Below are positions 10,151-50,538 of a DNA stretch of 53,055 nucleotides, one piece after another. The stretch comes from Psammoneis japonica (lineage: Eukaryota), in the NCBI GenBank assembly GCA_008632985.1, contig QPGO01000238.1, forward strand, positions 62,001-115,055, read 5' to 3'. The notes beneath the pieces were generated by a model. That model was given only the letters and a program-made list of their open reading frames with translations. It ran no database searches and was not told the DNA's origin. The position numbers were made by a program, and so were the translations under genes. Numbering within the stretch: position 1 is the first letter of the stretch; each line of letters starts with the position of its first letter.

Positions 10151-10944
10151 AAGGAAGGAAAGCAAAGGGTTGGCACTTGAGGGTAGAGAGGATGAGAGAG
10201 AGAGGGTCGACGAAGCTGTGCCGAGGTTGGAAACGATGAGGAAAATGGTGAAAACCGAAACAACGCGAAGGATGCATCGCAAAGGAAATGGACCATTGTG
10301 CGATGGAGGATCAGGAGCCCATTTCGGGAGGTGTAGCGAAGTGCTACTTGACTGGGGAGTAAACCCCGTCGGCGTTGTCGTTAAGGCTTTCGTCATCGTC
10401 TCGCTGTTTCGCATCGCAAGAATGTTCCGTTCAGACAGTTGGGAGGTGTCTGTGGTGTGGTCGGGCGGAGTGCACCCGGCGCGCGGACAAAGGGGACATC
10501 GTACAGGTGGGGATAGGATTTATTTGTTGCGTTGCTTCCCCGTGTATCTTGAATTGGACTTGACCAACCAAAAACCTTATGGAGGGCCCTCTACTCGCTA
10601 GTATTACTGCAGGGCCTAGCTAGGGCCCTTAGATTCTGTTCAGACGTGCATGGTCATTGATTTGTTAAGTTGGAGGAGGATGCGCACTGCAGGGCCTAGT
10701 AGGTAGAGAGGGTCCTTAGATTCTGTGCTGACGTGAATGGTCGTTATTTTTTTTTGTTAGAAGTTACTCGTAGAGGGGAGGCCCATGCCTCGTCTTCCAA
10801 GCAAACTCGATCAAAGCAGGTGTCGGCCCAACTCATGACTACCGGATCAAGAAGTAAACAATTGATTCCTTTTTACGATTCATCCAGGCATTCGATTAGC
10901 CAAATCGATCATATCAAGCTGGTTCTGCTCATAAGGTAGACCTG

Positions 10945-29480: not shown

Positions 29481-29576
29481 TTTAAAGCTGTGTTTGACTA
29501 ACTTGATTAAAATGGCAAAGGGGCAATGCGTGATGACTCAAAAAATTTACCCCTGTAAGTAAGCAACAATTCGCCT

Positions 29577-30922: not shown

Positions 30923-31280
30923 AGGAACCCCCGCAAGAAAGTTTGTAGCCCCAAGGAATGCAAGCGCGAGAAGTTTGTAAAGCATCGGGAAACCCCGCGA
31001 GAAAGTTTGCAGCCCCCCAGGAAAGCAAGCGCGAGAAGTTTGTAGAGCGTCAAGAACCCCCACAAGAAAGTTTCTAGCCCCCCAGGAACGCAAGCGCGAG
31101 AAGTTTGTAGAGCATCAGGAAGCCCCGAGAGAAGTTTGTGGCCCCCCAGGAATGCAAGCGCGAGAAGTTTGTAGAGCGTCAGGAACCCCCGTGAGAAAGT
31201 TTGCAGCCCCCCAGGAACGCAAGCGCGAGAAGTTTGTACAGCAGAACGTCAGGAACCCCAGCGAGAAAGTTTGTAACCTC
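30923..31280. repeat. Minisatellite, unit about 64 bp, about 5.5 copies
   Basis: Unit approximately ggaacccccgcgagaaagtttgtagccccccaggaacgcaagcgcgagaagtttgtagagcgtca. Confidence 0.93.
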
Positions 31281-32611
31281 AAAGGACCCCAAAGAGAAAG
31301 CTGCAATTAGCACTGCAGAGCTGAATGTTGCACATGGGATTCAACGGATGTGACACAGGTGTGCATGTGTCCTGTTAAAAAATCGATTAAAAACAGATAA
31401 ACCGGATCTGAAAATCTTGTGTAAAAACGAGAATGACCCTCACCGAATTTTTAACGCGAAAAACGACACGGCCATGGCGACAAAAGCCGCTCGCGTTGCT
31501 CCCACACTGTTCCATGCTACAAAACCAAGGCATGAATCGACCCGTCTTGTTGATCAGACATTAAAATACAACAACCTGGATCATCCACAACAAACTTGGT
31601 GCTCAAATCGAGTGCGCACTCTTGACACCAAAAATGACGCCCTGCAGAGACCCACACAAATTCTGCGCAAAAATGAAATCACCAATCAACAACCCTGTTA
31701 CAAACGGCAACTGGCAACGCCACACATGCCACCTCAGCAATCCACCAACACATCACGAGGTGTGTCAGACAATGAAGGATACGCCCACATCAATGAAAGT
31801 GCCACACCACACAAACGGCGACAACAGTGAGCGGGTCATTGTCGATGATGCATGTTTGTGTGACTCCGATGGCCACGGATTGAGAATTTCACGCTGTGGG
31901 GGTAAAAGCGAAGACACACAGGCAGACGAAAAATGCATGACCTTCAGTCATGCATGTCTGCTTCTACTCACACAAACACACATGTGCGTGATGAGTCTGG
32001 CGGTCCTGACCGTCAACAGAAATCTTGCAGTCTCACTCTCTTTTGCGAGTGACTCTGAAATCTAGCCACTGTCTGGTAGAGCTGCCAGCAGAGAGCAGTG
32101 CAGCTACGACACTTCTGCCTCAAAGCAGCTGGCAGCTTCCACTCTAGAGAGTGGAGAGCAGCGACCATTCTCCACTCTCTGCTCTCTGCTGGCAAGAGCA
32201 GCCAGGGAGCAGAGCTCTGCGCCTCTCCACTGGAGCAGAGAGCCAATCATGTTGGAGAGGCTCCAATGTTCCTTTGCAGGTGACACTTGGACTCGGCTCA
32301 CAAAATTCATTCCACGTGCTTTTTGTCCCACCACAAGAGTGTTTCTGAGTCAAAGTTGACTGTTCCTTTTTTTTCTCAGACCAATTTCTGTCCTGAGACA
32401 AGGTGAGCTTGACTGAAGTTGCTTGATTTGTTGTCAGAGTCAACGAGACACACAACAAAGTGGCACAGCCTGAAATGGAAAGCAAGATGCAACTGGCATG
32501 TCTAAACAGCATCAAGAGGGTGCAAGTGTGGGGTCATGAGACATGGTGCCTCTGTTCCAAACTCAATTTGTGTTGGCCTCTGGTTCATGTGTGCTTGCAT
32601 CATGTGCAAAA

Positions 32612-32817
32612 TGGTGTTTCCCGAGTGCGCATTTTGATCATCCGACCCAAGTGGGCACTTTGGTTGGTGTGCAAATTTGTTGACAAAGTTGATTTTGCTT
32701 CCAAAAATTTGGCAAAAAACAATGTGGTTGGTCTGCAACAAATTGGTCAACCAAAGTGTTTTGGATTGACCAAAATGCCTGATTTGGTCAACCAAAATGC
32801 ACACTCGGGAAACACCA
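32612..32817. mobile_element. Small MITE-like element with 25-bp terminal inverted repeats
   Basis: tggtgtttcccgagtgcgcattttg (32612-32636) versus caaaatgcacactcgggaaacacca (32793-32817); 1 mismatch. Confidence 0.6.
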
Positions 32818-33816
32818 ACAAACCAGGTGTGAAGCCAGCAATGTCTGAGCCTGTGAAGCCACAGCAGTGGCAACACACAGCACACTGAGGGGGGCCATGT
32901 CCAGAGCTGCATGGAACTTCTTCAGATGAAACAGCACGGGGTTTGACCAGCCCACCATTGTGCTGTTGGTCAGTTGTTCAACCCCGCATCCTTGGAGTGC
33001 TGCACATCTGTGTGGGGGTTGGCACCACACAGCACATGTGGAACATGTGCCAACTCTGCTGCTTGTTCTCTCACAGCACTCACAGCATTTTTTGTGCATT
33101 GTCCTCATCATCTTAACTGGGGGTTGTCATTTGAGTTTGGGTGTAAAAACTGATGGTGCAGCTGCACCCCCTGACATGAGCTTGGTTTTTCCCACATGTG
33201 GCACAAACATGCAGCCACTCAGCATCAATGTGAGAGTGCTGTTGTGAAATGAAGAGCAGTTTGTGACTTTGGCTGACACCTGAGACATGAAATCTTATGA
33301 CAACATTGCCAAAATGGCAAAACCTTTGGTCATTTGTGCAAGTGCAGAGGGATGCCCAAATTTGGAGCTGCTCAAATCACATGAACCCGGGCTTTGGTTT
33401 TGAGGATCTGTGATGAACAACATCATGGACAACCTCTGGCTGCAGCAGAAGCAATGTCAATCGGGGTTTTTTGCCAGATTGTGAGTTGATTCAAACTGGT
33501 TGAAAAGGAAAAGGTGGCTCACTGCGCTGTTGAAGCAGCACATGACTGGAAAGAAAGAGATTGCCAAAACATGAGGGGCCCTCAAAACAGACTCTTTCAA
33601 AGAACGAGCACTTGCACTCACCAAAGCGGAGCTTTGCCTGCTCTTTGAAAGGTTTTCTGATGGCAGCAGGAGCCCTTGGAGGAACGCAAATGGCAAAAAA
33701 AAAGCTTCGCTGGCTTCAAAACAAACACAGAAAGAGTCATGAGCTCAGCACCATGAGCTGCTTTCCAAAAATCACATTCTTGAGCACCTGCACACCCCAA
33801 CTCCACAGTGAAAGGA

Positions 33817-34032
33817 TCGCAGCCAAGACTCCAAGCCAAGCAAGGAGAGGACCTCCTTGACTGGACCGAGAGTCACCGCGCGAATGCAGGAGCGAAATGG
33901 GTTGAAGGACGGACGACGGACGAGACGAGCGGAAACGAGGCCAGCCCAAGGGATCCCCTCATTGTCTGGCAGGATGGGAGACACCATGGCACTGTCAGAG
34001 GCGTCTCCCAGGAGATGCCAACAATGAAAATC
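33817..34032 (+). repeat. Split direct repeat A1
   Basis: 216 bp, differs from A2 at 4 dinucleotide sites. Confidence 0.95.
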
Positions 34033-34961
34033 GAATGGTTTTTCTCTCTCTCCTGTCAGTCAATGCTGAAAATCCCTTGCGTGGTCTGCTTGCGCAGCCG
34101 GGAGTGTCTCGTGCATTGGTGCTGTTTGTTGCCACGCCATTTCGGCGCTGTCCTGTGGATGCACCTCCCCAATTTTTTTCACCACTGGTGCTGACTACGG
34201 TCACGCCATCTTGGCGCCATGTCACGTGGGCATTGCTCTAAATCCTGACTGGGTCCGCTTGTCAGCGTGGACCGCTTCGGCGGCCGAGGATTGCCTCGCA
34301 CTCTGGCCTGTTTGCCACACCTTTCAATGGTGCTTTCTCACAAGGAGCACATCCTCATGTGGACGGTCTCAGCACCATTAAAAGTCCTGCATGGGCAAAC
34401 AGTGGCATGGCTTTTCAATCCGCCTGCCGCTTTTTCCTGAACGCCCATGTTGGGCCCCTTTTCTTTTGCCGCTCTGCGGTTCATGGTCATCGCCTTTCCT
34501 CTCGGCGTGTCCAATTTTTCCCCTCTCCCAGGGACGTGGTGTGTTCAGACTTGTGCACCAGCACACTGCAGTGTCGGAATTACCAGCTCTATCTGGTCGA
34601 CATCAATTGTGTGCACATGTGTGCACTCCCGTGAGGGTTTAGTCAAAACGAAATTTGCCACCACGTTTCGGGGGTTTTTCGTCTTCTCGCGAAATGCGCG
34701 CCATCACGATGATGAATGGTGATGGAAACTGACCCGTCACATGGGAATGAAACTTGGATTTCTTTCTCATCTCCATTCATTGGACAAGTGTGGGAATCGT
34801 GAAGGGTTGCGTTCGCGGAACCGACACGGTGTCAGCCAACGCTTGTCCTTCTCGAGCAATTTCCACACGCTGGTGTCCTTCACTTTCCGGTGAGATTGCT
34901 CTCACTTTTCCTTTTTGCGATCAGACGAGCCTTTGGTTTTCTGCTGCTCTGTTGTTCCACC

Positions 34962-37243
34962 ATGAACCACGCCCACGCTGCTGCCATCAACCGCGGTGAG
35001 CTCTCCGCTGCAAAGCGGCACTCCGCCGCTTTGCCCTCCTCCACGGGTGCGATCGAGTCTGTCTCAACTGCTGTCCACCATGACACCCAGAAGGAGCTGC
35101 GAGACCATGTCTTCACGACCTCTGACCTTTTCTGCGCGGTCTGCAATCGCAAGATTGCGGTTGTGGCGAAACCTCGCCCCAGGCAGCATGCTGATGGGAA
35201 TCTAAAGTGGATCGGGAGCCTCTCGGATACGATCGGCGAGGTCATCCCGATGTTTGGCAGTTGGACTCGTTTCCAAGGCCATGCAACCACTCTAAACCCC
35301 CAGGGCGCTGTGGATGCTCATCACCTGCCCAAGTGCGAACTCAGCCCTGACGAGATTGACGGTCCCGTTGGCAATGACGGCAACAACGTGCCGGCGTCGA
35401 TGGGTCGTCTCCATTTTGGGAATCCTTCCGGACCGGCAGAGCGTCCCTCCATCGTCGCACTCCCGATGTTCCTGCCAATCCCAATGGGCGTCACCCTTCC
35501 TGTTGACTTTGACCCAGCAGATCCCCCAGCATCCCTTGCCACTGACTTTCCGCTCGGAGTGGTTTGGGCTCAGGGTGTGTCCTGGTTGCTTCAGCACAAC
35601 GCGTCTGTCTCTGTCACGGAAGGCGGCCCTGTGTTTGAGCAGAACGGTTTTGCCATTGTCGATGAGTTTGCAGGCCTCAAGATCCACAATCTCGACGACA
35701 ATGATGCACAGATGCTCCAACCTCTGACGGATTGGTGTGCACTAGTCAAGACCACGATGGACGCCTTTGCGGATGAGACCTGGAGGCAACTCGGTGGAGA
35801 AGATCCCGCGCAGACACCAGCTCCCGCCGCCCCAGCCCAAGGCACCAACGGACAGGTTCCGAACCACACCATCAACATCCCGCGCCAGGACTCAAAGAAG
35901 GAGTCAGACCAGAAGCTGAGGGCGTGCGACATTGGCCACCGCTGGTCACTCTGTGCGTTCCGAGTGACTGCTGGCACAGGTCCGGAGGACCCGCCCATGA
36001 TCATCGTGGGCGAGCTTGCGGACCAAGCGGTCAAGATTCTGCAGGACACGTTGGCTGCCAATGCAAACCGTGACCTTGCGGATCTTGTTAAGATGGCTGT
36101 TGTTGCATCAGCCCGTGGTGACAGTGGTCTAGATGCTGGGGTCGATTGCAAGTGCACCACAGTCAACAAGGCCACACGGACTGTTTCCGCGGCTTTAATG
36201 TGGTTGCGGAGCCCCCGCAGTGTGGCCAGGCTTCGCACCGTATGAAGCTGTCTGTCTTTCCCTTTCTTCCCCTGAAGACTGCATCATCTTCATTTGCTGG
36301 TCTCAAGGACGAAGGGAGGACACTCCATCGGGCACTTGCCAACGGCTCTGACTGCAAGATCCCCGATGACGCGAAGGCAAGCGACCTTTGCATCCAAGGA
36401 AGGATGGACACTGCCAGCGATCTGTGGTCAGCACTTTGCAACTTTCGCTGTGTCCTTGGATGTTGGATCAAGGACTTCGACAATGCGGAGCTGTGGAAGT
36501 CCCTGGATGTGTGCGCAAAGGTTCTCTGGTCGCACCCGGGCCGTGCGTGGCTCAAGAATCTCGAGGACCCGAAACCAGTCGTCGCTGGCATCCTAGATGA
36601 TTTCCAGACTGTTGTCAAAGTCTACTTTGAGATCGGAGACTCTCCCTTGTACCGTCAGGCGGTAGAAACCGAGCGTCCGCTGAGCTGCCAGACAGCAAAG
36701 GACGCTCGCACTCTGGTCAAGTCCCTCATTGCGGACCTCAACACCGCGATCACGCGGGGCAAGCCTCTGGCCTTTGCAGAGGCATCTACATTGGCCCTTG
36801 TCCCCCCAGGCAACTCTGTGTTTCCCTCTGCTGCTAGCGGAACGAAGGACAATGCGACCAAGTCTGGTCAACCTCCGAATGAGAAGCCGCGCACAGGGGA
36901 AACAGATGAGAAAACCACCGAGCTCTGCAAAGCGATGGGTGTGCTCAATTTTTCGGGCACGAAGTGGCTCCCGACCAGCCCCGTTTTCTACAAGAAGCGA
37001 GGATCAGATCAGGAGGAACGTGTCTGCATGTGCTTTTGTACTGAGGGGCACTTCTGCAAGTTCCCCAACTGCCCGAAGCCCCACCCATCGTCTCTCTCCA
37101 AGATTCCGAGTGAAAAGAGGGATGCCTTTTGCCAATTTGTCAAAGACACCCCTGGACTCGATTTTGTCCCTGGCAAGGGCCCAGACGGTGCATCCCAATC
37201 AGGTTCAAAATTTTCTAGTCTATGCACCACACCCTGTTGCTAA
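34962..37243 (+). pseudogene. Gag-like ORF1 of the YR retrotransposon (frameshift near 36175), C-terminal Cys/His finger
   Basis: ORFs 34890-36245 and 36146-37243 overlap in different frames; C-terminal CMCFCTEGHFCKFPNCPKPH is CCCH-like; position upstream of RT; the first 451-aa ORF has no Tyr. Confidence 0.7.
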
Positions 37244-37323
37244 TGCAGTGTTGTCCAAAACTGTTTTGTTTTTACTCTTGATTAGTCTGCATTATCCCGG
37301 ATAGGTCCGTTCGTCTCATCGCA

Positions 37324-40212
37324 ATGGATGTCGACGACGACAGCGATCAGGAGTGCGAGGTGATCGATGCAGAAAAAGAAGAGACCGGAATGAGCATCGA
37401 TGATGCCATCCCAGCTGTTGACGCTGCACTTGCCACGTCGGTGAAAGAGCCGCACCCGAGCCTGCGCCGAGGTGCGGTCACGCCGCAGCCTCCCGTCGAC
37501 GAGAATGAGCTGATTGAGCCATTCCCTACCTTCTCCATGGTCCATAAGAAGAAAGGGACCAATCTGATTCCTACAATCAACAACGGCTTCAACAAGAAGG
37601 CACGTGAGCACTTTGCCAATGCGGAACTGTCACCGGGCGTGCGTGCCAAACTGGACCAAAAATTCGGCAAGGAAAGCTTGAATCAATGTTTCTTGTTGGA
37701 AGCGTGTTTGCGTCATGTGTTGTCACCGCTGTTGAAATCCGGACACCTTTTGCCACCGGTTGATTGCGTGAGTGACTTGTCTGCCCAAATCGCCTTTGGG
37801 GGCGATTGGGAGAACTTCGGAGCGGCCATCCCGGAAGCAGCCGAGTTCATGAGTCTGGTCCAGGAACATGGCGACATCGACTTTAATCCTCTCCAAGGCT
37901 ACCCCAAGGGATGGCAAAAGGAGACAACGGTCAATGCGGATAGAGCCGCGATGACAACTGCCGCATTGTTGCATTTTGATGGCGACCCAGCAAACCTGGT
38001 TCGCTGGGTTGGCGGACCGCACGTCGGTGAACACAGATGCACGCAGAAAATGCTCCGCTTTCTACAAGGTCGTGTGCCCGACGAGACAATGGCACACGTT
38101 CGCCGCATCTTCCAAGACGGGGCGCCAGCGAAATGCAACACTGCTTTCTCTGAAGCAAACTTCCAAGCAGCTCTCAAGTGCGGAAACCACAAGGCCGTTG
38201 ACGCTGCACCTGACAAAACATTGGCGGCAGTCGTCAAGGACAATCGCAAGGGTTTCACGCTGCTTTTTGACCAGCGTCTGGTGCCATGCTTGCTGAACTG
38301 CCATCTCACTCCTCAGGGGATGGTGGACCTTGACAAGAAATGCAAGAGTCCGCGCCCCATCTTCGACAGTGCGATGCGAGCGACTCCGGGCGGTGCAGCA
38401 ATCAACGACACGTTGGACCTCAAGCACGAACCGCCGATCACGTTCCCATCAGCGGAAATGGACTTTATGGTGTGGACATGGAACATGAGAATGTCCTGCC
38501 CACATGAGGAGATCTGCCTTGGCAATGATGATGTGAGTGGCGCTTTCCGCAACATGAAGCACCACCCGAACCTTGTCGGGATGCATGCCAGCGTCCAGTG
38601 TGGACCAGGCGTCCTACAGACGGGTTGCACCTTCGGCGACAAGACCAACCCAAGCAACTGGGACGCCATTGCCAACGCAAGACAACATCTTGCTCAACAC
38701 TTCTGGCTGGTGCCCAACATGGTGGAGCTCGCCCAGCAGTGTCTCCCGTCGACATCATTCGCGGAACCTCCAACAGCTGAAGAGGTGGCGTCATTCTGTC
38801 CTGCGGAAGCAGACGCTGTCAATCCGGGCATGTTCCTAGACGGCAACCGTCTCCCACCAACATGCAAGCACCACATCGATGACAACTTCTACGGAGACAC
38901 ACGTGACTTGATGAAAAGAACAGTCGCTGTGAGCGCCCTGGCCGTGTGCATTGTGTTGGGCTTCCCACGCGATGAAACTCCGGATTTCCCAAGCAAAGAG
39001 AAACTGGACACACTGTGCTCGCATCTCCGACGAGCCCTGGGAAGGCACTTCAACTCAAGAGCACTGTCGGTGGGAATGCTCCCATGCAAACGAGAACAGT
39101 TCCTTGAAACTTTGCAAGAATGGTGTGACAAACAACGGCACACACTGTTGGATGCAGCGAACCTGAATGGTCAATGTGAATTCCATGCGCGGTGTTGTCC
39201 ATGGGCTCGGCCGAATTTTTTTGCACTCCAGAATTCCGTGCGGCGGGCTGTGGTCGTCCAATGCGCCATTGTCAAACGAATCATGGAGCGACAAAATTTC
39301 AAATTAAATTTTGAAACTCAACTGCCGAGTCATCTCAGGAATGGGCTGCCGAGCTCACTCGCGCGCACACAAGCCCAGCTCCTCTGTGAGCTGAAGATCG
39401 AGATCCCGATGACATCCGATGTCATTGATGTGATGAAGGATGCAGCATCCTACATCGAATCGACGCCAGACCCATGGACAGCACCGATTGGATGTGTCAT
39501 GCTGCGAGTGCCACATTGCCAAGCAATTGGAGACGCCAGTGACGCAGGCGGAGGAGCCCACTGCGCGGAACTCAAATTTTGGTTCGCATTTCTTTGGGGA
39601 CCAAAAATGGCGAAAGGGCTCCGGCTGAGGAAGGCCTCCGACCCAGAGTGTGTCCATGTCAACACAGCAGAGTTTGTTGTCATCACACTCAAGCTGGCAG
39701 CTGCAATTGTCTGCATGGAGACTATGACCCGAGAACGGGCCCATGAGTTCTTCCGGAACGGCGTCGTCCCGCTGCACCTGGTCGTCAGGAGTCGTTCAGA
39801 CAACATGGTGTCGGTCAACCGGTCCAACAAAGCAACGTCAAAGTCGCCACAGGGGCAACGATTTGTTTGGGTCTTCTGCGAATTGCTCCGCCGTGCTCGT
39901 GCCAACTTCAACGGTGATCACATCTTTGGCGACGAAAATTTTGTTGCCGACGACATCTCACGACCTTCTGTTTTTGCCTTGATCTCGCATCGCACCCATT
40001 CTGAACAGCTGTTTCGGAAGTGTCCCTTTCTGAAGACCTGGGACTGTTTCCAGCCGAGTCAAGAGCTGCTGCAGCTCCTCTCCTCACAGCTGTCTACCAA
40101 GCACAGAATGGCACCCCAGATCCCAAACGACTTGGGACAGCTCGTTCCCGCAGAATCCATTTCCTCTGCTTTTACAAGAGTGCGAAGTGGCACCTGGGAG
40201 ATCCGGAAATGA
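37324..40212 (+). pseudogene. Reverse transcriptase-RNase H ORF of the YR retrotransposon; open frame but YxDD mutated
   Basis: RT motifs DDVSGAFR, TFGDKTNPSNW and HIDD (expected YxDD); RNase H motifs GDAS, HVNTAEF, SDN and HIFGDENFVADDISR. Confidence 0.9.
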
Positions 40213-41261
40213 CTGTGATTGGCAAGGACCCAAAGTGCTGCCAACTGGTGCCAGCTGTGCATGCGTTGCATCTAGCTAGCGGCTCCACTCTCTACTGCAA
40301 GAACATCTCCTCAGGTGCCATCAAGGAATGCGTCCACGACGTGTCAACGTTCGTGTCTCTGTTTGGTTCCACGCATCGGGACGTCCGTAAAGACAACAGC
40401 GTGGACACCAAGATGGGGTGGATCCTCAGGAGAGCATTTGATGAACTCCAACGGTGCGAGAAAGTCCTGGAACGGCGCGAGTCATGCACGTTGCTGATGC
40501 AGCAACGAGCGACGTTGACAGCAGACAGCATGCGAGAAACCGACCCGGACGCGATCGAGGTGGTCCTCGCTGACTGGTTTGAGATTGGGCCAATGGCCGG
40601 CTTGCGAAGCATCGAATGGGCTCAATCCAATGAGCACTCAGACCTGGAGAACCCAAGGCTGAACATCTTCGAGGAGACCTGCGTGTTCTGCCTCGACGAC
40701 ATCCGCTGCGAGACAAAAGACAAGCACCGACACACCGGAGCGGATTGTCTCATCCCCAAGCAAGAGGATGTCGAAAGCATGTGCGTCATGTTCCGAGCTC
40801 AGAAGAACATGCACAATGGCGAGGAACGCCAGTTTGCTGTGAATCTTGATGGCAAGCACGACTTGGCAAAGCAGATGCTTCGCGTCATCCGATGTTTCGT
40901 GCAGGTCCGTGGCAAGGACGACAAGATCTGCCCCCTTGCTGTCTACTTCGATCCAAAGGAGGACAAGTGCCATCTCGTCACGTCCAAGAAAATCGAGACC
41001 CACATGTGCCGAATTGCCGCGGAAGTTTGCCACCTCGACCCGGTGAAAGATGAGAAAGCTCTCAGCAAATGGTCGGCTCACTCCCTCCGTGTTGGAGCCT
41101 GCAATGTCCTTCACGAGATGAATTTTAGTGGCGAGCAGATTAAATGGCTGCTCAGATGGCGATCTGATGCCTTTGTGGCTTGTCTCTGCAACTGCCTGGG
41201 TCTTTCCCAGGCCCATTGTCGAGCTCTCGATAAGGCGGCACCCATGCCGTTTTTCGATTAA
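40209..41261 (+). pseudogene. Tyrosine recombinase of the retroelement; catalytic Tyr replaced by Cys
   Basis: GLRSIE (catalytic R), FRAQKN (K), HSLRVGA (HxxR), LRWRSDAFVACL where Y is expected at C (TGT, 41181-41183). ATG at 40209 overlaps the RT stop (ATGA). Confidence 0.92.
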
Positions 41262-41529
41262 TCCATTTGTGCGGATTCAATGTGTCCCCTTTGTGTGTGT
41301 CCTCTCTGCGTGACATAAAATCGCACACTGTTGTCCTGTTGCACCCGAAATTTCAATTTTGAAATTCGAAATTTGATCCTGGCAACGGGACTGTACACAT
41401 GCATTCAGGAGGAACATTCGTCCCTCCATCGTGTCTGAAGAAAATGGATTTTTTTTTTCCGGTTGGCTCTGCCTCCGATGACATGGGCGCGTTCGCAATG
41501 CTTTCAGCATTCCGCATCGGCAGCATGGT

Positions 41530-42209
41530 CTGTGCACAGTGAAAAAGGGAACCAATTGCTTGGCACTGGCGATTCCAAGCCCAGTCCCACATCCTAATTG
41601 CTTCACCCACTGGCGACTATTTTCATCGTGGCAACAACATGAGTCTACACACGGATGTGAGCACTGCGCATGTTGTGGACGACACCAATGTGTTGCATCG
41701 ACAGACAAGAGACGCTTCCACTGTGCCATGTCATCGGAGTGCAGACACGGATTCTCGCAGCCAAGACTCTGAGCCAAGCAAGGAGAGGACCTCCTTGACT
41801 GGACCGAGAGTCACCGCGCGAATGTAGGAGCGAAATGGGTTGAAGGACGGACGACGGACGAGACGAGCGGAAACGAGGCCAGCCCAAGGGATCCCCTCAT
41901 TGTCTGGCAGGATGGGAGACACCATGGCACTGTCGGAGGCGTCTCCCAGGAGATGCCAACGATGAAAATCAAAAACCCACCACTCCCTCCCCTGTGCACA
42001 GTGAAAAAGGGAACCAATTGCTTGGCACTGGCAACTCCAAGCCTGGTCCCATGTCCCAATTGCTTCACCCACTAGCGACCATTTTCATCGTGGCAACAAC
42101 ATGAGTCCACACACGGACATGAGTGCCACGTACATTGTGGACGACACCAATGTGTTGCATCGACAGACAAGAGACGCTTCCACTGTGCCATGTCATCGGA
42201 GTGCAGACA
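41530..42209 (+). repeat. 3' repeat block B1 (41530-41747), A2 (41755-41970), B2 (41992-42209)
   Basis: Direct alignment of B1 with B2 and of A2 with A1. Confidence 0.95.
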
Positions 42210-43413
42210 GCCGAGGCGGAGGCAGGGAATCCGTGGGATTCCACCATGATGACACCACCAACCAACCCAGAAACTGCAACCTGAGGGCATTGGGGGTCTT
42301 TGGGGGTCCCCAGGTGACACTTTGGGGACTGTGGTTGAGCATTGCAAGGCTGTCCTGGCTTGTGCAGTTGTCGCCCAGTCACGTCATCTCACAAAGGAAG
42401 AGACTTGAATCCCAGCTCAGCAGCAAAAGCAGGTGACACTTTAAGAGCCATGGGCAAAGAGCATTGCAAAGTGCCCCTCTTGAACAGCTGCAGCCCTCAG
42501 CCACTTTTTCCCGCAAAGGATGAGACTTGAACATCCCAACTCCACAGAGTGAAAGGACACCGTGATGGGGCGACCAACCAACTCAACAACTGCAGCCTGA
42601 AGGCATTGGGCTGAGCATGAAAAAAGTGAAGTCTGCAGATTTTTGAGAGAAAAGGCTCTCCCAACACAGAGATTCCAGCCACCCCCGCCACTGCACCACA
42701 CTTTGCACTGATTTGTGTTCCAGTTCCTGTCAATCCATTCTGCTGGACAGCCAGATCTCACACAAAAATTGTGCCACTGAGCACGGGTGTGATTTCCATC
42801 ATCTTTCCCAAAACAAACTTGCTGGGAGTGTTGTGGTTCCAGCCTTTGTTCTGTCTTGAGTTGGGACCAAGATGGAAGGCGGGAAATGGGGGGCAAGCCG
42901 TCCTTTCTTCACGCGACATTGCCGTTTTCTACTTTTACAGCAGCGCAACAAAAAATCCGACCGCCGTTCACCACAAACAGATCCGACAGCCTCACACAAG
43001 AGGTCTGTTGCCCCTGCATACTGACCGCTGTTTAAATGTTTTCGCATCATTGCTTTTACCGGTACACAATGTCTCACATCTGTTATGAGGCGTTTTGTGC
43101 GCGGCCGTCAAGGCTCCGCATCTCAATCTGTTGCGACACGGCATCACGCCCATGAGGCATCTGAATGACTCCAGCTCTTGAATTTTTGTTTGAAGACGCG
43201 ACCAATCGCGCTAATACATCTAATGCTCTATCCGCGATGCTTTCAATCATGGATCGAGCGAACGATCGACACTCGACGAGCGGCGAATCAATTCAAGCAC
43301 GAACGATCCGAGCTGTTGCACAACACGCTTCTCACTCTGAACAAGACACATGCACGAATGAGTGACAGCTGAACGTCAGTGCGCTGCTCAATCCTAACAA
43401 CACCAAAGCAGCC

Positions 43414-45671
43414 ATGAGTCGTTCGAGCAAGACCCACCAGCCGAAAGCGAACAAAGGCAGGCATAGTGCTAGAACAAGGCAAGAATCAGAAGATCAAAAG
43501 CAAGAGGAACAGACGGAAGAAGTAGATATGACGGCCAATCATGGTTCTCTTAGAACGCAGAAACGCCGCAAGCATCATCGCGAACACTGTCGTGCCCAAC
43601 GTCATCGTCGAGAGCAAGCGCAACAGCAAGAAGAAGAAAGGGAAGTAGAGGGCGAGGATCATCTGCGAGAACACGGGCAACAGGAAGCTCAACCAGACAA
43701 TCCAGGAATCGCCCCTGGTGCTTTTCACGTAAACCGAAATGGGCAGGTCCGACGCAGTAGAGGAGCCGCAGGTGCCACCACCACTCCGTCGGACTCGGAC
43801 TCGAACTCGGACTCAGTTCATTTGGATCCCATGCCTCCTCCACCCACTCACAATGAAGCACCTGGTGTTCTTCTGGAGGCTGAACTCGCCGATGACGTGG
43901 GTATTTTGAGGGAAGAAAATGATCGTCTTCGACAAGAGCTCCATCACCGTCCTGTTGCCCATGCTGAGATTGCTCCCCATGTTGTGGTGGCTAATGCGGA
44001 AGGTGGCGATGAGTATGATGAGTTGAAGAAACGTCGACGCAATCTTTTTATTACTTTGGGAGTGGCAATTGGTGTTTTGGGTCTTATTGCTGCTCTTGCA
44101 GTCACACTGTCGCGCCGCAACAACAACAGCAAGGAGGATCGAATCCCAGAACAACCATCTCTGGCACCAGCAAGCACGTCTCCGTCGCTTTCAACGGTAA
44201 AGCCTACGCCGTCAGAGGGCCCTGCCGTGCCTCCTACAGCAAAAAGTCCAACACCGTCACCAGCAGTAGACCCTGCGTCACCCCTTCAAGTAATCCCACG
44301 ACAAGCGAAGCTGCCTCGACGACTCATCCGACGAGCCATCCTACGCAGTCATCAACAGAGGAGTCTACGTTGCCTTCTTCACTTAATCCCAGCGAAAGTT
44401 CAACACAATCTCCCACTACATTTTCCGCTGAACCACCAACAGAAATCAATTCGTTTACTCCTTCGACAAGTGGACCAACGAGAATCTCAACACCACTTCC
44501 AACAAGCGATCTGCCCACAATGTCGCCAACAGAAAGCCCAGTCTCGACTGCCTCCTACAACCCCACTCTACCTCCCGTGACAGATCGTCCTACACAGATT
44601 CCGACAATGGGGCCTACGCCAACACCTTCAGGAAAGCCTTCGGCGCCTCCAACAAGGTTGTCCACGCCAACACCTTCAGAAAAGCCTACGCCGCCTCCAA
44701 CAAGGTTGCCTACGCCAACACCTTCAGAAAAGCCTACAGCCCCCCCAACGAAACTTCCAACGTCGCTTCCCGATTCTCAGGTCTCAGCGACCGGTCTTCT
44801 GGTACTGTTGTATTCGTGGCCAACCATTGCTCTCGATGACTCTACTGGAGAGTACCAATGCATCAGTGAGCACTGGAAAACAGTTGCAACCAGTGTTGCG
44901 GCCGACAGGACAATTGCGGTCGTTAATCCAAACAATGGACCGCAACATGGTGGCGACACATGGAAGAAGCTCTCCTATGATACTTGTATTGCTTACATCA
45001 AGAAGAACAATGTCGAAGTCAGCGGGTACGTCCACACAAAACTGGGCTACCCCGACGAACTTTACGCCTACCGCGACATTAACGAAGTAAAGGCTGACAT
45101 TGACATGTGGTCCAACGAGTACAACGTTGATGGAATATTCATTGACGAAGTCAGCAATAGATGGCTTGCAAGTTGGGATTCATTGGAAAAAGTCATCTCT
45201 TTCAACCATGACATTGTAGATTATGTTTTGAACGACAAACTCTATGGCCGAGCTATTCTCGACCCTGGTTCTCCGTACTTTGAAGACATTATGAAGCCTT
45301 TTTATGGAAATACGAAAGTCATTGCGGTTTTATTTGAGGGCAAACAGTGGGGCTATCAGCGCGAAAATTGCATTTCGGGGCTGTGGACGCAAGCGCAAGG
45401 ATCGTTTACTCCCGGTCCGTGGTGCAATTCAGTGCCAAACCTTGACGGAATAGAACCTCTCAAGGCAGCAATCGACAATGGTTGGATCCTACCCGAACAG
45501 TCTGCTGTTCTTATCTACGGTGCTGAATCTACTGCTGCAGCCACGGAAACTTCAATTGACGTGGGCGTGGCAGCTAATGTGGGGTGGTTTTATATTGTCG
45601 ACAACGAGGACGAGTGGTCGGCAATGCCGTCAGATCTTGTGATGGCCACGCAAGCGGCCAAAGTACTCTGA
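43414..45671 (+). CDS. Type II membrane protein with Pro/Thr mucin-like stalk and C-terminal Spherulation-specific family 4 (GH135-like) domain; frameshift near 44283
   Basis: TM segment LFITLGVAIGVLGLIAALAVTL; PTPTPSEKPT repeats; Spherulin-4 motifs LLYSWP, IAVVNPNNGP, GYVHT and DGIFIDE; frames switch at the cccc run 44281-44284. Confidence 0.8.
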
Positions 45672-45850
45672 GCACGACGACGACTGTCTTCTCTACTTGC
45701 AGTCTTTGAGTTGTCAAGTCCATAGTTCACGTCAATTGCCCAAGCACAAGTCTACGACTGGAATGCCACAGATGGGCTAGTGTTGTTTCTGTCTCCAACG
45801 TCAAAAAGAAGGCACCAGCAGGTCGATACGGTATTAGCTTCTGGGTGTAA

Positions 45851-46078
45851 TTTAGATTCATTTTCTATGCAGTCACACCTCAGGCATGTTATCCGAATGG
45901 CTATTGGAATTGGGTATGAAAATCGGATTTCCCGCATTGCGGTTAAACATGCTTTATCATTAGCAAAAGGTGCGGTGTCATTTAGATTCATTCTATATGC
46001 AATCACACAGTAGGCATGCTATCCGAATGACTACTTGAATTTAGTATGACAATCGGACTTCCCGCATTGCGGTTACAG
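45851..46078. repeat. Tandem duplication, 130-bp period
   Basis: tttagattca...cccgcattgcggtta at 45851-45945 and 45981-46075. Confidence 0.88.
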
Positions 46079-46740
46079 CAAAAGGAGCGCAAGGAGCTGC
46101 ATTGTGATTTGAAATGGGTTTCAAAGACGAAAGCTAAGCACCATTCTGTAGCGCGTGAGAAACCAGTTACAACAGCTAAAACCGTGCAATGACTGCTCCT
46201 GTGCATTATATACTTTACCATTCACTTATCTCTGTCCGAAGTCCCTGGCGAATGCCCGAGATGACAATAATTAGAAAGATTACTCGTCGCAGAATCCTCG
46301 CAGCCCTAACTGCTCAAAAAGGCCGGCTGGATCGCCGACGAACAATAAGCATTGCCGTACAGTACCATAAGAAGAGGATAAGAATGCCCCTCGTCATCTG
46401 ATGACTAATAAAGATCGTCGCCCTCGTAGGAATAGCACAGATCACGGTCCTTGTCAAAAGCAAGCCGCTTGCCAAGGCGGCTTTCCAGTCAGGACTCAAT
46501 TTGTGAACAGCATTTCCATTGGCCACACCCATAACTTTCTGGTTGGCCGCATCCGTACCCTTTCATGTTGAAATCGCCGTTGAGTACATTATTGCGATAA
46601 TTCGAAAAGACGCAAGCCATCCAGGAGCAGATCGTCTTTGCAAGTACCACTATTCCAGTAGTCTCTCGGGCTTAGTTCAGGCACAATCAGTGGCTAAGCA
46701 CTCGATTCGTCAACGACAAGCTCCACCCAAGCATACGATG

Positions 46741-47923
46741 CTAACGTACGGCTCGATTATGAACAAGCCAGTCATCCACCGCCGCAACCGTGGCTTCTAC
46801 TATATCGAGGTGCTTTTGTTGCTGTGACCCAATCAGGGCAACAATCTTGTCCACCCGCTCAATATTGCATGCGCCGTCCTTGAGGGCTCTTGCAGCCGAT
46901 GACGGACTTTGCAGTGCTTGTGCTGCCTTTGCATATTTTTCAAATGCAACAAAGTCACTTGCTTCACCACCGAGACCCATACAAACATCGACAACCCCAT
47001 TCGTACACTTTGCGGCTCGGTCTCGATGTCACTGCATACAGCGTCCTTGATGGAAAGCATGTCTTTACCGACCGGCTGGATACATCTATAATTTCCCGTC
47101 ATGAGCATGGACCACTTGGCGAGAGGTACAAAGACAGAGTCGTAAACACGTAGTTTCACAGGTACTTGTTGTTGCTGCTGTCCGAATCGAGCAGATTCAA
47201 TGCCACGTTCCAGATCCTTCAAGATTGCGTGTGTTGTGGCAAAGCAAAACCTGATGCCTTGAAATTGGTGGCAAGTCGAACTTGCAACACATTGTTCTTT
47301 TCATCTGGAGGCCGAAATGCTTGTGGATCAGGACTGTTAAAAAAATTAGCGAGTAGTATCATGCATGTAAGCTTTGTCTCTGTTATAAAACAAGGCAACT
47401 CTCCACAGACACGAGACATCTTACCTGCACTGCGTCAGGACGGAGGATCAAAATCGTCCCACAATTCAGCTTCGGCAAAGCATGATCGGAGTTCTTCGCC
47501 AGACACGTCCAAGTTGGGAATTCTCTTGAGATACGGCAAAAGAGGCATGTTGGTGACAGCCATGGTTGGTTTGCGGCTCTTGGCGATCGCTTGTACCAAC
47601 TCTCGAACGCCCGGAGCGCTGTACTGAGGCTCTTGCATGGCCAGTACCACCAAATCAAACTCCTTCACCGACACATTTTCGGGAGCTTGGGCCTGCAGTG
47701 TTCCAGTCAAGTCGTTTGAATGTAGTACAATCACCTCGCCCGAGCGTGTAGGAATGCGTACGACCGACCCTTCGGTGTTGAAGAGCGCCGCTGTGGCCTC
47801 TCGGCATACCAACGTAACGTTGTGACCGGCAAGAAGAATCTTTGTGGCCAAGAGGGATCCATAGGAAGCACCGAGAATCAACACATTGTACTTGACATCA
47901 TCGCTGGCACTGTTGGTCGCCAT
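46741..47923 (-). CDS. Ketopantoate-reductase (PanE/ApbA)-fold NAD(P)-dependent oxidoreductase, bacterial type; four apparent single-base frameshifts
   Basis: Rossmann N-terminus NVLILGASYGSLLATKILLAGHNVTLVC, DLVVLAMQEPQY; later SPDPQAFRPP, VPLAKWSMLMTGNYRC, FEKYAKAA, IERVDK. Intron 47424-47334. Frame breaks near 47443, 47228, 47019 and 46996. Confidence 0.75.
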
Positions 47924-48334
47924 GGTAGTGTCTCTCCAGCTCTATAGTTCTTGGAGGTGATGCTGTGCTGTGCTTTTCTCTTGCAGGCAGCGCTTGCAGC
48001 TTGCAGCCGCTTCCTTCGTTTTCTCACTCTAGAGTTACAAGCAAGTCCCACTAACTTTCTCATTCCACCTGCAATTGACATTCCTTTTTTGTCACTTTTT
48101 TCGCTCAGGATCGTACGTACGAATAGAATCTTCAACTTGGGTATCTTTTCCGAAATCTTCAACCCAATCGCGCGATGGGTGACAGCGATGATGCATGTGT
48201 GATGATTCATCGGCAATCATGACATAGCCCTACCGGTATCGCGATAACTTCACTTGAAACTTGAAACCATTTCACACTCTGCTGCTTCAATCAAGTTTGT
48301 GCTTGCCAATTTTAGTATTACTTGAAACAACACC
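47924..48334. promoter_or_regulatory. Putative bidirectional promoter
   Basis: 411 bp between two divergent ATGs; inferred from gene layout only. Confidence 0.5.
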
Positions 48335-50057
48335 ATGGCGGAAGCTGGCCCTGACGTTCCTACTTATCAATATCTCACCGGCGTGAATACATTGCGACAA
48401 CTCCCCAATATTTCTCATTCAACGTCGGCGGCAGCAATTTGCATTCCGCACGAGAACGACAAATCCGCCATTGAGATTTCCTATCAGCAGCTTCACGATT
48501 TGATCGAGTCTACCGCAACAAGTCTAGTTGAAAAATGTGGCGTACAAAAAGGGGATATTTGTTCCATTGTCATGCCAAACTGCGTGCCATTTGTTCTGGC
48601 CTTTCTTGCCGTGCCATGGACCCGATGCGTTTCGGCCCCACTCAACCAAAACTACACCGAGTCCGAGTACAAGTTTTACATGGAGGACAACAAATCGAAG
48701 CTGCTCTTGGTTCCTTCAGAGGGTATTCCTGCTGCCGAGGCGGCGGCAGCCACGTTGGGAATTGCCGTCTATTCTGTAGATTGGAGCCAGTCTGAGCCTG
48801 AACCTAGTGTTGTGGTGAAGCACAAGTCGGGGCAACCCGAGTGGATGGTCTGAGGAAAGTTCCACGGTGGACAAGAAACAAAAACTTACCTTCGATCCCG
48901 AGCCTTCAGATATTGCTCTTTTTCTGCATACATCTGGCACTACTGCAAAACCCAAAGTGAGTGATCGGCCTGTCTCATGTTTCAAGATGTGACCCGTAAT
49001 CAAACATCGTTTCTAACAATCCCATGGTGCATACGTGTAACAAAAGGGAGTTCCATTGTCACACGCCAATTTGATTGCCAGCATGAACAATATTTCTCGG
49101 ACGTATAGCTTGGTCCCGTCCGATGCAGTGTTGTTGGTCATGCCTCTCTTTCACGTTCATGGCCTCATGTCGGCCTTGCTGTCGACACTGGCCACGGGCG
49201 GAACGGTCATTCTTCCGCCGCAAATCAAGTTTAGCGCTACAAAGTTTTGGCACAATGCGTCCGTGGGAAAGGCGACTTGGACCACGTGCGTACCCACCAT
49301 TTATCAGGTGCTACTGCTGAGGTACAGCCAAGATTACCCGTCGGAAGGAGCTCCAAACTTTCGTTTTGTTCGAAGCTGTAGTTCTGCCTTGGCGCCGTCG
49401 ATTCTCAAGGAAATTGAAGAGAAATTCCATGCTCCCTGTGTTGAGGCATATGCCATGACGGAAGCAAGTCACCAAATGTGTTCCAACCCAATTGATGGAG
49501 AGCGCAAGCCTGGTACTGTCGGGAAAGGCACGGGCGTGGCGGTTGCCATTTTGGATCCGGAAAACAATGTTGTTGCTACACCTGATACCGAGGGTGAAGT
49601 GTGTATTCGAGGAAAGAACGTGACTAGTGGTTATATTGGAGTCAGCGATGAAGTCAACAAGGAAGCCTTTGCCGGCGGGTGGTTCCACACTGGGGATCAA
49701 GGTAAGCTCGACAAGGACGGATACTTGACACTGACGGGTCGAATCAAGGAACTGATAAATCGGGGAGGAGAAAAGATTAGTCCCTTGGAGGTGGATGCTG
49801 CCATGCTTGCGCATCCGTCGGTGGCCGAGGCTGTCTCATTCTCCATGCCTCACGAAAAGTATGGCGAGGTAGTTGCAGCGGCAATTGTGCTAAAGGAGGG
49901 AGGCGAGCTAACCGAAAAGGGTTTACAAGAGTTTCTAGTAGACAAGATTTCTTCCTTCAAGATTCCAACCAAGGTGTTCTTTGACAATAAGTTACCAAAG
50001 ACCGCCACGGGAAAGATTCAGAGGCGAATAGTCGCAGCGCATTTCCTCAAAGATTAG
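48335..50057 (+). CDS. AAE3: Oxalate-CoA ligase-like acyl-activating enzyme (AAE3/PCS60 family); frameshift near 48837
   Basis: LFLHTSGTTAKPK|GVPLSH, VMPLFHVHGL, RFVRSCSSAL, EAYAMTEASHQM, FHTGDQG, KELINRGGEKISP and LPKTATGKIQRR are motifs typical of the AAE3/PCS60 clade; intron 48957-49046. Confidence 0.88.
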
Positions 50058-50277
50058 GTGCATTACATCAATATGTGGCTGGTTTATTGACATTTTGCTA
50101 ATGAAATAATAATAAGCTTCGTTTTCGTGTTTAGCATAAGCGGCTACCTGGTAGGGTACCTGAAGCACATCCGGCATCAATAAACACTGTAGCGTGGCGA
50201 GTGGTAAACGTCGATTCACTACCGGTATGCTCCTAAATTTACAGCGGCACTCTAGGAATTTATGCCTGTCGTGGCAA

Positions 50278-50538
50278 CGACGTGACAGAGCAGTCTCGAG
50301 ACTTCTAATAGCTTTGTCAATGTCTTTTCTGATTGAATGCATAGCACCTCTATGCTTTCCTTCATACCCGAACAATCTTCAAGATTGATTCTTAGCTCTC
50401 TCACTCATAGCGACGTGACAAAGCAGTCTCGAAACTTCTAATAGCTTTGTCAATGTCTTTTCTGATTGAATGCATAGCCCCTCTATGCTTTCCTTTTATA
50501 CCTGAACAATCTTCGAGATTGATTCATAGCTCTCTCAC
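50278..50538. repeat. Tandem duplication, about 133-bp period
   Basis: 50278-50404 and 50411-50538 are near-identical. Confidence 0.92.

Follow-up and report, generated by a model that had tools for sequence, protein, structure and literature searches.

The stretch of DNA analysed here, a segment of 53,055 nucleotides of Psammoneis japonica (contig QPGO01000238.1; the window), contains a retroelement that has kept most of its CpG but little of its TpA, and the DNA on both sides of it lacks both dinucleotides. Are two mutational processes at work here, how do their speeds compare and are they separate from each other? For quantification, strand-symmetric observed/expected ratios (o/e) were calculated with expectations from 200 mononucleotide shuffles. 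In the element interior (33820-41300), we counted 54 TA vs 378 ± 15 expected (o/e 0.14) and 476 CG vs 568 ± 17 expected (0.84). Both dinucleotides are scarce at 32200-33800 (TA 4 vs 111 expected, 0.04; CG 17 vs 90, 0.19), at 42250-42900 (TA 1 vs 37, 0.03; CG 9 vs 44, 0.20) and at 7900-9600 (TA 3 vs 106, 0.03; CG 25 vs 101, 0.24). Host-gene stretches gave ratios of 0.44 and 0.59 for TA and of 0.97 and 0.91 for CG. The combined TG+CA ratio rises from 1.2 in the genes to 1.37 in the interior and 1.6-1.8 in the flanks and the old tract. This pattern of a CpG-retaining, TpA-depleted interior next to DNA without either step had been described in the initial annotation, and the shuffle-based ratios bear it out. 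Its extent and wording required refinement: the element reaches 42241 and not 41300, and "almost no TpA" corresponds to about one fifth remaining (62 sites in the whole element vs about 314-317 starting sites estimated). The starting TA o/e of the element was estimated at about 0.74. The relevant features are:

7400..10300, no strand: old repeat tract without TpA and CpG, a mosaic of at least 2 dispersed families (58 matches, 67-86% identity to other copies)
32000..33816, no strand: old left flank with TpA and CpG nearly absent, including a MITE-like family and a cut tandem-repeat unit
about 32600-32820, no strand: MITE-like family inside the left flank
33786-33816, no strand: truncated end of a tandem-repeat unit (~190-bp family), 31 nt directly before the element
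33817..42241, + strand: Ngaro-type tyrosine-recombinase retrotransposon, young copy, with split repeats and with ends common to copies at other insertion sites
33817..34035, + strand: repeat A1, 219 nt, 97% identity with A2
34803..36245, + strand: ORF 1 (stop to stop), Gag-like on position alone
36122..37243, + strand: ORF 2, an open frame overlapping ORF 1
37282..40212, + strand: reverse transcriptase/RNase H-like frame, 29 homologues
40005..41261, + strand: tyrosine recombinase frame, homology spanning 40218-41258, 108 homologues
41530..41747, + strand: repeat B1, 218 nt, 91% identity with B2
41755..41973, + strand: repeat A2, split-repeat partner of A1
41992..42209, + strand: repeat B2, split-repeat partner of B1; the element tail continues to 42241
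42242..42900, no strand: old right flank, of which 42242-42610 is about two units of the ~190-bp tandem repeat
43000..50500, no strand: host-gene control stretch with Pfam matches, in which 0/285 TA and 1/415 CG sites differ from contig C270

Ngaro elements (order DIRS) are described, in the accessible part of the source, as carrying split repeats in the order A1-[ORFs]-B1A2B2, an ORF in the Gag position, reverse transcriptase (RT)/RNase H and a tyrosine recombinase with HxxR and a catalytic Tyr (PMC8547959). The element shares the repeat layout, with split direct repeats in the order A1-ORFs-B1-A2-B2, and the tyrosine recombinase; it also has an open frame in the Gag position and a putative RT/RNase H frame. 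At 8.4 kb it is longer than the Cafeteria Ngaro elements of about 6 kb described there, its putative RT is divergent, carries HxDD and is missed by Pfam, and all copies examined are mutated. Pfam gave no match in any of its four frames. The recombinase homologues have HxxR and the catalytic Tyr, with HSxRVGA and the Tyr invariant across 38 aligned sequences; PF00589 was matched by 2 of the 108, and the homologue profile matches Cre (E 0.004). In the window copy the catalytic Tyr is mutated: TGT (Cys) stands in the position where 99% of homologues have Tyr. One RT-frame homologue (P0250) scored 0.96 against RVT_1 clusters and 0.93 against RT_RNaseH clusters in a feature search, one of the 10 homologues scanned with Pfam matched RVT_1 (E 0.036), and no reverse transcriptase was matched in a profile search of PDB. 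The RT frame contains 0.31% Tyr compared with 2.0-3.8% in 26 homologues, and TGy or CAy stands at 8 of the 10 conserved Tyr positions that could be scored. Such changes of Tyr to Cys or His cause Pfam to miss these elements. We also considered the HIDD of the window RT as a mutated YxDD and rejected this, since HxDD is the family motif (HVDD in 25/26 homologues).

The 31 nt directly before the element and the tandem repeat directly behind it belong to the same ~190-bp family, and both pieces are contiguous in another locus of the genome (L058). Thus, the element is a younger insertion into an older repeat, as had been proposed. The right-flank repeat has 134 dispersed matches in the genome with 70-80% identity to other copies. 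For 32850-33780 in the left flank, no copy was detected other than the contigs carrying the same insertion, and when four old tracts were read through in all six frames (24 in total), Pfam gave a single match (E 0.049). A joint of 33814 with 42575 in run X1 was considered as an empty site and rejected; on one side it spans only 21 letters, and it probably comes from another tandem-repeat unit.

When we compared independent copies of the element, the lost fractions in the window, C191, C33 and C214 copies were 0.82, 0.84, 0.77 and 0.82 for TA and 0.15, 0.11, 0.10 and 0.21 for CG (block-bootstrap 95% ranges for the first three, 0.66-0.88 and 0.07-0.18). Thus, an estimated 77-85% of TpA vs 10-21% of CpG is gone from four young copies. 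Equal rates were rejected (2dLL 644-713), and TA conversion to TG/CA is estimated to be about 7-16 times faster than CG decay, which agrees with the faster TpA loss claimed earlier. In an older copy (C107), 0.96 of TA and 0.75 of CG are lost. In a model-free check restricted to RT-frame codons that outside homologues conserve, each of 9 copies had lost Tyr at 7-10 of its 9-10 scorable codons; for Arg CGN codons, the losses were 3-7 of 21-24 in seven copies, 11/20 in C273 and 16/22 in C107. No TpA-intact copy was found among the 40 candidates scored out of 53 (62 matches). The proposed convergence of both losses on TG/CA also held, with 0-2 direct TA/CG pairs per pair of copies. CpG loss is suited to dating old copies and TpA loss to very young ones only; together, both indices form a two-range clock for transposon age.

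These losses took place after insertion. In the window, A1 and A2 differ at 5 dinucleotide steps, all of them TA/TG/CA/CG, with no other substitution, and B1 and B2 differ at 12 YR steps plus 1 other substitution. Taking the A1/A2 and B1/B2 pairs within the four young copies together, we counted 29 TA losses, 21 TG/CA splits, 14 CG losses and 8 other changes. Moreover, copies differ in whether a given Tyr codon has become TGy or CAy. TA conversion to TG or CA thus arises in each copy independently, and it proceeds site by site. It also went on after contigs carrying the same insertion had split: between the window and C270, 31/84 TA and 67/565 CG sites differ inside the element vs 0/410 TA and 1/591 CG sites in the gene stretches, and transversions are similar (8/8408 in the element vs 3/7481 and 3/3390 in genes). 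The C287 tract 20008-22000 (2.5% diverged; 8 TA and 8 CG differences, 41 other substitutions) was kept out of this gene control for its roughly 25-fold higher background divergence. The CG to TG/CA change was likewise confined to repeats among the stretches compared. CpG transitions reach about 6% per C vs 0.13% for other transitions between same-site contigs; this excess is higher than the roughly tenfold one of mammals.

The TA target has a well-defined context. A>G changes amount to 9.8% after T compared with 0.80% after A, 0.54% after C and 0.68% after G. The TG and CA outcomes are balanced (111 vs 102, p 0.58), which means that both strands are equally affected, A>G on one strand and T>C on the other being indistinguishable from sequence alone. 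There is no strand coordination of nearby TA and CG events (same-strand share 0.48-0.52). On the 3' side, fitted weights for TA loss were T 48, C 27, G 11 and A 8; loss is fastest at TAT/TAC, ahead of TAG/TAA, and nearly absent at TTAA. TTAA retains 59-71% of its normal density across all CpG classes, whereas ATAT is down to 0, and the slow 4-mer CTAC drops stepwise over the CpG classes (0.25, 0.15, 0.11, 0.03, 0.03). According to the accessible part of PMC8989541, TadA-derived base editors favour a 5' T and a 3' C and disfavour a 3' A. The TA sites of the element share the 5' T and the aversion to 3' A; here, however, 3' T ranks over C, and the need for 5' T is near-absolute compared with the editors' mild bias.

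The likeliest cause of TpA loss is a candidate adenine deaminase in silenced chromatin. After insertion, a copy would be silenced and CpG-methylated, probably by a DNMT5-type enzyme; in the silenced chromatin, the A of TpA would be turned into inosine by deamination and become a fixed G once the DNA is replicated, and 5mC would deaminate more slowly in the same domain. We assign a probability of roughly 0.55 to this reading, in which an adenine-deaminating activity on silenced repeat chromatin converts TA 7-16 times faster than CG decays, alongside methyl-CpG decay. The genome, marked as that of a diatom by its silicon transporters, contains a Tudor-DNMT-SNF2 locus, which fits DNMT5, and a chromodomain-DNMT locus. 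Searches for deaminase domains matched PF14437 (n = 5), PF00383 (n = 10) and PF02137 (n = 4); these families are not expanded, and the loci read (C17, C36 and C151 excluded) resemble ordinary housekeeping forms. We infer that 5mC causes the CpG loss. In Phaeodactylum, loss of DNMT5a depletes methylation and de-represses young transposons, as far as the accessible text reports (Hoguin et al., 2023; PMC9998398). Our element resembles such silenced transposons in that CG goes to TG/CA in repeats and not in genes and that a DNMT5-like locus is present, but methyl-CpG decay accounts for the slow component only.

A comparable TpA signature has been described in the rhizarian alga Bigelowiella natans (Mettrop et al., bioRxiv 10.64898/2026.01.13.699255). 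According to the accessible text of this preprint, TpA goes to TpG/CpA on either strand of integrated viral DNA, as directly observed in mutation-accumulation lines for two viral insertions, one of them single-copy; of the mutations in its hypermutable regions, 210/211 and 20/20 were A>G or T>C transitions, and mutation was limited to some of the lines. The process was confined to foreign or silent DNA with long-term TpA loss and TG/CA gain, and an adenosine deaminase, with an ADAT2-like candidate, was proposed, not shown. Our data agree in the A>G/T>C transitions at TpA on both strands and in the sparing of host genes (0/410 vs 31/84). The rate, hundreds- to thousandfold above background in that system, agrees as well, by an indirect comparison that is not per generation: 37% of TA sites vs 0.1% transversions per base differ between same-site contigs. 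Unlike Bigelowiella, we deal here with diatom transposons, 167/379 sampled windows stripped of TpA, near-saturation, a 3' context rule and nested CpG decay; the preprint reports almost no C>T, and the word CpG is absent from its accessible text.

Fungal RIP makes C>T changes and thereby creates TpA. With this system (RID/DNMT4) the element shares repeat-confined, dinucleotide-specific transitions on both strands that kill transposon genes, but the polarity is opposite, TpA being the target here and falling. C>T at CpA is no more frequent (0.71%) than in other contexts, one direct repeat can escape when its close neighbour is mutated, and no clustered same-strand runs were seen. In diatoms, RID has relatives of the DNMT4 type, some of which carry a chromodomain (PMC9998398, accessible part). 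A far-reaching version of the deaminase reading, which we regard as doubtful, would see one constitutive, chromatin-guided defence mutator of diatoms that combines adenine deamination in double-stranded DNA at TpA(Y) with fast CpG loss, kills new transposon copies within very short evolutionary time and represents a natural DNA adenine editor, the inverse of fungal RIP, common to at least diatoms and chlorarachniophytes.

How separate are the two losses? Among 379 sampled genome windows of 1 kb, TA o/e was below 0.2 in 167, CG below 0.5 in 121 and both in 118, and none of the 121 CpG-poor windows had TA at 0.3 or above. An unlikely alternative, which takes the separation proposed in the initial annotation at its strongest, is that the two clocks are fully independent: a RIP-like, front-loaded burst (or rare episodes) would strip most TpA shortly after insertion, and CpG decay would proceed by itself afterwards. 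With all sites of a 4-mer class treated alike, an early TA pulse is indeed favoured over proportional hazards (2dL 16.1, p 6e-5), and across the four young copies TA exposure is flat (p about 0.002, simpler model) while CpG exposure varies about twofold (0.051-0.113). Moreover, as seen in Bigelowiella, TpA mutation can run without C>T loss (10.64898/2026.01.13.699255, accessible text), and TpA persists in the last 250 nt of two copies (15/18, 11/15), where CpG shows no significant additional retention (p 0.38). Gamma site heterogeneity, however, improves the fit by 70 log units; the pulse then adds nothing (p 0.65), and the test over six branches does not reject proportional TA/CG hazards (p 0.14). 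These fits hardly separate a burst from heterogeneous sites, and the models ignore the tree kinship of the copies and their conversion or chimeric tracts. The continued TA loss between same-site contigs, the stepwise fall of CTAC with CpG class, the missing strand coordination and the lack of CpG-poor windows with TpA also speak against independent clocks. TpA and CpG losses thus share their territory and, at the resolution of these data, a single exposure time. Of the earlier claim that TpA conversion is separate from 5mCpG deamination, the distinct chemistry stands (A and not C, with its own context), but not the independence, since in the sampled windows CpG loss was seen only where TpA is already lost. 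Along the copies, TA and CG retention co-vary weakly (Spearman 0.34, p 0.014, 52 bins sharing sites), which we do not take as proof.

Other explanations dispense with a deaminase acting on DNA. A modified base at TpA (6mA, oxidised or otherwise modified T) or an error-prone polymerase repairing methyl-CpG lesions might place G opposite T; this would account for the shared territory, the joint scaling of both losses, the uncoordinated events on both strands and the failure to find a special deaminase among the domain matches, and yet we consider it improbable. Polymerase eta-type errors strike AA as well as TA. Such a WA signature was not seen, AA>G not being raised, and there were no transversions at 214 majority-TA copy-sites. 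Patch repair would put TA losses on the strand of nearby CG losses (observed share 0.48-0.51), and TA losses could exceed what CG lesions seed only if most lesions were mended unseen. ADAR-like editing of the transcript ahead of reverse transcription, or selection that had made the element TpA-poor from its origin, is very improbable and largely refuted by the differences between A1/A2 and B1/B2 within one copy and between contigs of one insertion. ADAR does prefer a 5' U (10.64898/2026.01.13.699255, discussion), two PF02137 loci are present in the genome and host genes are mildly TpA-low themselves; against this stand the equal TG and CA outcomes, the equal stripping of inverted-repeat and tandem tracts, the estimated starting ratio and the destroyed conserved Tyr codons, which selection would not produce. 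Least probable of all is a base-calling or assembly artefact from modified bases in long reads. The insertion is present in four contigs that differ from each other in a mosaic fashion, a hint of some chimeric assembly, but run X1, which may stem from the sample behind the window itself, yielded word-based contigs that differ from 32000-33831 by 1 letter and from 37669-37931 by none and carry alternative alleles found in other contigs, and TG or CA is fixed per site and copy and graded by age and context.

A repeat-confined A:T to G:C mutator opposes the usual GC-to-AT bias as well as fungal RIP. The only report of such a mutator that we found is the 2026 preprint on another algal lineage; our literature search, which left most subscription journals and repeat databases outside, retrieved no diatom report of TpA hypermutation. 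The TpA signature itself is already in that preprint, the supplements of which may hold context or CpG data; new here are the TA/CG rate ratio, the nesting of CpG loss within TpA loss and the context rule. The ratio, the nesting and the preference for TAY over TAR narrow the candidate chemistry. Divergence-based ages of such repeats are inflated, and a natural DNA adenine deaminase, if true, would be of interest to base-editing research. In 2/9 independent copies (C33 and C182), B2 retains TpA though B1 is stripped; an edge effect may also arise under the homology recognition of fungal RIP.

The initial annotation had described the interior of the retroelement (33820-41300) as poor in TpA and rich in CpG, and its flanks and the tract at 7900-9600 as lacking both steps. 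Quantification of observed/expected (o/e) ratios against mononucleotide shuffles confirmed this description. We found o/e values of 0.14 for TpA and 0.84 for CpG in the interior, 0.03-0.04 and 0.19-0.24 in the left flank, the right flank and the tract 7900-9600, and 0.44-0.59 and 0.91-0.97 in control host-gene stretches. The TpA deficits were 8-21 standard deviations under shuffled sequence, and TG+CA o/e rose from 1.2 in genes via 1.4 in the element to 1.6-1.8 in the old tracts. The pattern of TpA depletion before CpG depletion is real. At 12386-13633 lies a long inverted repeat with 82-94% complementarity between its arms and o/e values of about 0.11 (TpA) and about 0.6 (CpG), which resembles a DNA transposon or MITE of intermediate age.

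The element and its split direct repeats have the following coordinates:

33817-42241, element, ends common to copies at other insertion sites
33817-34035, split direct repeat A1
41530-41747, split direct repeat B1
41755-41973, split direct repeat A2
41992-42209, split direct repeat B2

The order A1/B1/A2/B2 is the split-repeat arrangement described for Ngaro retrotransposons in PMC8547959. The last frame has 108 homologues, and a profile built from them matches Cre recombinase (E 0.004). The long middle frame (37282-40212) is hardly detected by Pfam and PDB profiles; one of its 29 homologues scores 0.96 against reverse-transcriptase (RT) clusters. In this RT-like family, missed by Pfam, HVDD or WVDD replaces YxDD in 26/26 close homologues. 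The sequences 33786-33816 and 42242-42610 belong to one dispersed tandem-repeat family of about 190 bp and are contiguous in another genomic locus (L058). Since the element splits a unit whose halves join there, the immediate flank predates the insertion, and the proposed nesting in an older repeat holds. Many contigs carry the tandem repeat (42242-42610) as dispersed arrays of roughly 0.6-1.5 kb. What remains of the left flank is of mixed composition and includes a MITE-like family (about 32600-32820).

Searching the genome assembly (91.4 Mb, 597 contigs) for copies yielded at least 62 matches; 40 of 53 candidates were scored and 30 loci taken. Contigs C270, C287 and C324 share this insertion and its flanking sequence (identity about 98%) and may be alleles, duplications or partly chimeric assemblies. 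Together with window 20008-53055 they make four contigs that cover a single locus, are nearly identical and contain mosaic tracts, which may reflect gene conversion or chimeric assembly; about 1.1 kb of C324 (40180-41230) is similar to the C214 copy. Independent insertions showed 90-93% (C191, C33, C214) or 77-82% (C182, C273, C107, C359, C386) identity. TpA was low in every copy and CpG o/e spanned about 0.9 down to 0.2-0.3. When the young copies (window, C191, C33, C214) were compared, transitions in pyrimidine-purine steps affected 4.7-6.1% of sites versus 0.15-0.76% for transversions. TA was aligned directly to CG just 0-2 times per copy pair, and the suggested convergence of both losses on TG/CA was upheld.

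Losses were estimated with a mixture model in which the origin of each step is TA, CG, TG or CA. The lost TA fraction was 0.82 in the window, 0.84 in C191 and 0.77 in C33 (bootstrap 0.66-0.88), and the corresponding CG fractions were 0.15, 0.11 and 0.10 (bootstrap 0.07-0.18). For C214, values of 0.82 (TA) and 0.21 (CG) were obtained, and for the older copy C107 0.96 and 0.75. In young copies the TA hazard was 7-16 times the CG hazard; the ratio was 3-6 for the second subfamily and 2 for C107, in which TpA is saturated. Equal rates were rejected (2dLL 644, 3 df), which bears out the claim that TpA is lost much faster than CpG. Between the window and C270, 31/84 TA sites and 67/565 CG sites of the element differed. 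In gene stretches (C270 right, C287 left; the more diverged C287 tract 20008-22000 omitted), the differences were 0/410 and 1/591. Transversions against the same-site contigs were similar (element 0.10%; gene stretches 0.04% for C270 right, 0.09% for C287 left). Thus, both losses are recent, confined to repeats and far above background. In a second young repeat zone (29400-32000), part of which is a 64-65 nt tandem array (30915-31292), 16/63 TA and 21/138 CG sites differ from C287.

In the RT frame, 7-10 of 9-10 scorable Tyr codons were lost in each of the nine copies; Arg CGN losses were 3-7 of 21-24 in seven copies, 11/20 in C273 and 16/22 in C107. At a given conserved Tyr codon, the present sequence is TGy or CAy depending on the copy. 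In the recombinase frame of the window, 4/5 conserved Tyr are now Cys or His (among them the position occupied by Tyr in 99% of the 96 homologues aligned) and 4/18 conserved Arg are now Cys. According to the Ngaro model, the terminal repeats would have been identical at insertion; inside the four young copies they differ by 29 TA losses, 21 TG/CA splits, 14 CG losses and 8 other changes. C33 and C182, the right ends of which adjoin normal DNA, retain 15/18 and 11/15 TA-class sites in their last 250 nt, versus 7/53 and 2/64 in seven other copies. Tyr-codon decay, terminal-repeat differences and TpA-retaining ends therefore indicate that the initial TpA content was ordinary (estimated o/e 0.74), and TpA loss is mutation occurring after insertion. 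In C33 (L006) and C182 (L007), B2 retains most TpA next to TpA-normal DNA and B1, 460 nt away, is stripped, which suggests that local chromatin, not sequence identity, sets the target. Among 96 recombinase homologues (median Tyr content 3.0%), the nearest outside one, P0001, is the poorest in Tyr (1.1%), a hint of the same process in another genome.

The annotation had further proposed two separate clocks. In 38 arbitrarily placed 10-kb stretches (379 1-kb windows), TA o/e was below 0.2 in 167 windows, CG o/e below 0.5 in 121, and both in 118. None of the 379 was CG-poor (<0.5) with TA o/e of 0.3 or more, and 16 were TpA-poor with CG o/e of at least 0.7. The plot is L-shaped, so the joint linear scaling named beforehand as evidence against separate clocks was not seen, but two rates acting on one exposure also predict this shape. 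A branch model (1539 sites; six branches, namely the shared branch and two tips of the same-site pair and three independent copies) favored an early TA pulse (p 6e-5) when rates were equal within each 4-mer class, and an early burst of TpA loss is possible. However, gamma-distributed site rates improved the fit by 70 log units; the data then did not reject proportional TA/CG hazards (p 0.14), and adding the pulse gave no gain (p 0.65). Counting against full coupling, a simpler model gave twofold variation of CpG exposure and flat TA exposure among young copies, and CpG sparing at TpA-spared ends was not significant. Two independent clocks are not needed by these data; of the proposal, two rates about tenfold apart stand, better put as acting on the same silenced DNA.

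TA outcomes were balanced (TG 111 vs CA 102), neighboring events showed no strand sharing (same-strand share 0.48-0.52), and A>G was confined to TpA (TA>G 9.8%; AA>G, CA>G and GA>G 0.5-0.8% each). Fitted weights were T 48, C 27, G 11 and A 8 for the base 3' of A, and A 1.0, G 0.56, C 0.46 and T 0.39 for the base 5' of T. In sampled TpA-poor windows, ATAT and ATAC were zero, CTAC, CTAG and GTAA dropped stepwise alongside CpG, and TTAA was retained at about 0.6-0.7 of normal. TadA-derived editors prefer 5' T and 3' C and disfavor 3' A (PMC8989541), which is a resemblance in context rather than a test. Taken together, TA in repeats is converted to TG/CA after insertion, on both strands and site by site, at a rate about tenfold that of CpG loss and ahead of it.

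This loss is a variant of a kind of process recently described for Bigelowiella natans, the signature of which the window element shares. There, A>G or T>C changes at TpA made up 230/231 of the mutations newly arising in two viral insertions, at about 1000 times background, with an ADAT2-like enzyme proposed as cause; the available text mentions neither CpG nor diatoms (bioRxiv 10.64898/2026.01.13.699255). No report of diatom TpA hypermutation was found in the literature searched. Like RIP, the process is a repeat-confined mutator, but it lacks RIP's defining polarity. The data largely exclude RNA editing and selection, and an artefact of sequencing or assembly is unlikely because contigs of run X1, which may be the window's source sample, reproduce 32000-33831 (one letter different) and 37669-37931 (identical).

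CpG loss probably reflects 5mC deamination. For the TA change the likeliest cause, more tentatively, is deamination of adenine within silenced chromatin, with a modified base or an error-prone polymerase of a special type as possible alternatives. Deaminase-domain searches of the assembly found no family expansion, and the loci examined presumably represent a TadA with a signal-like start, a dCMP deaminase and another small deaminase. There were 27 C5-methyltransferase matches, including a Tudor-DNMT-SNF2 (DNMT5-like) and a chromodomain-DNMT locus. According to PMC9998398, transposons in Phaeodactylum depend on DNMT5a to keep their methylation, and the DNMT4s of diatoms, some chromodomain-bearing, cluster with fungal RID. 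Locus L128 (C34:43385-45776), a DNMT frame preceded upstream by a chromodomain frame, resembles this chromodomain-bearing form and is a candidate source of fast CpG loss. Methyltransferase frames on C297 (L135, L136) and C301 (L137) nearly lack Tyr, lie within TpA-stripped DNA and are possibly carried by mobile elements. With 24 matches to silicon transporters (best E 2e-208), several of them full-length, the assembly is very likely that of a diatom, and C38:226311-230342 holds one 1511-aa open frame with three silicon-transporter domains.
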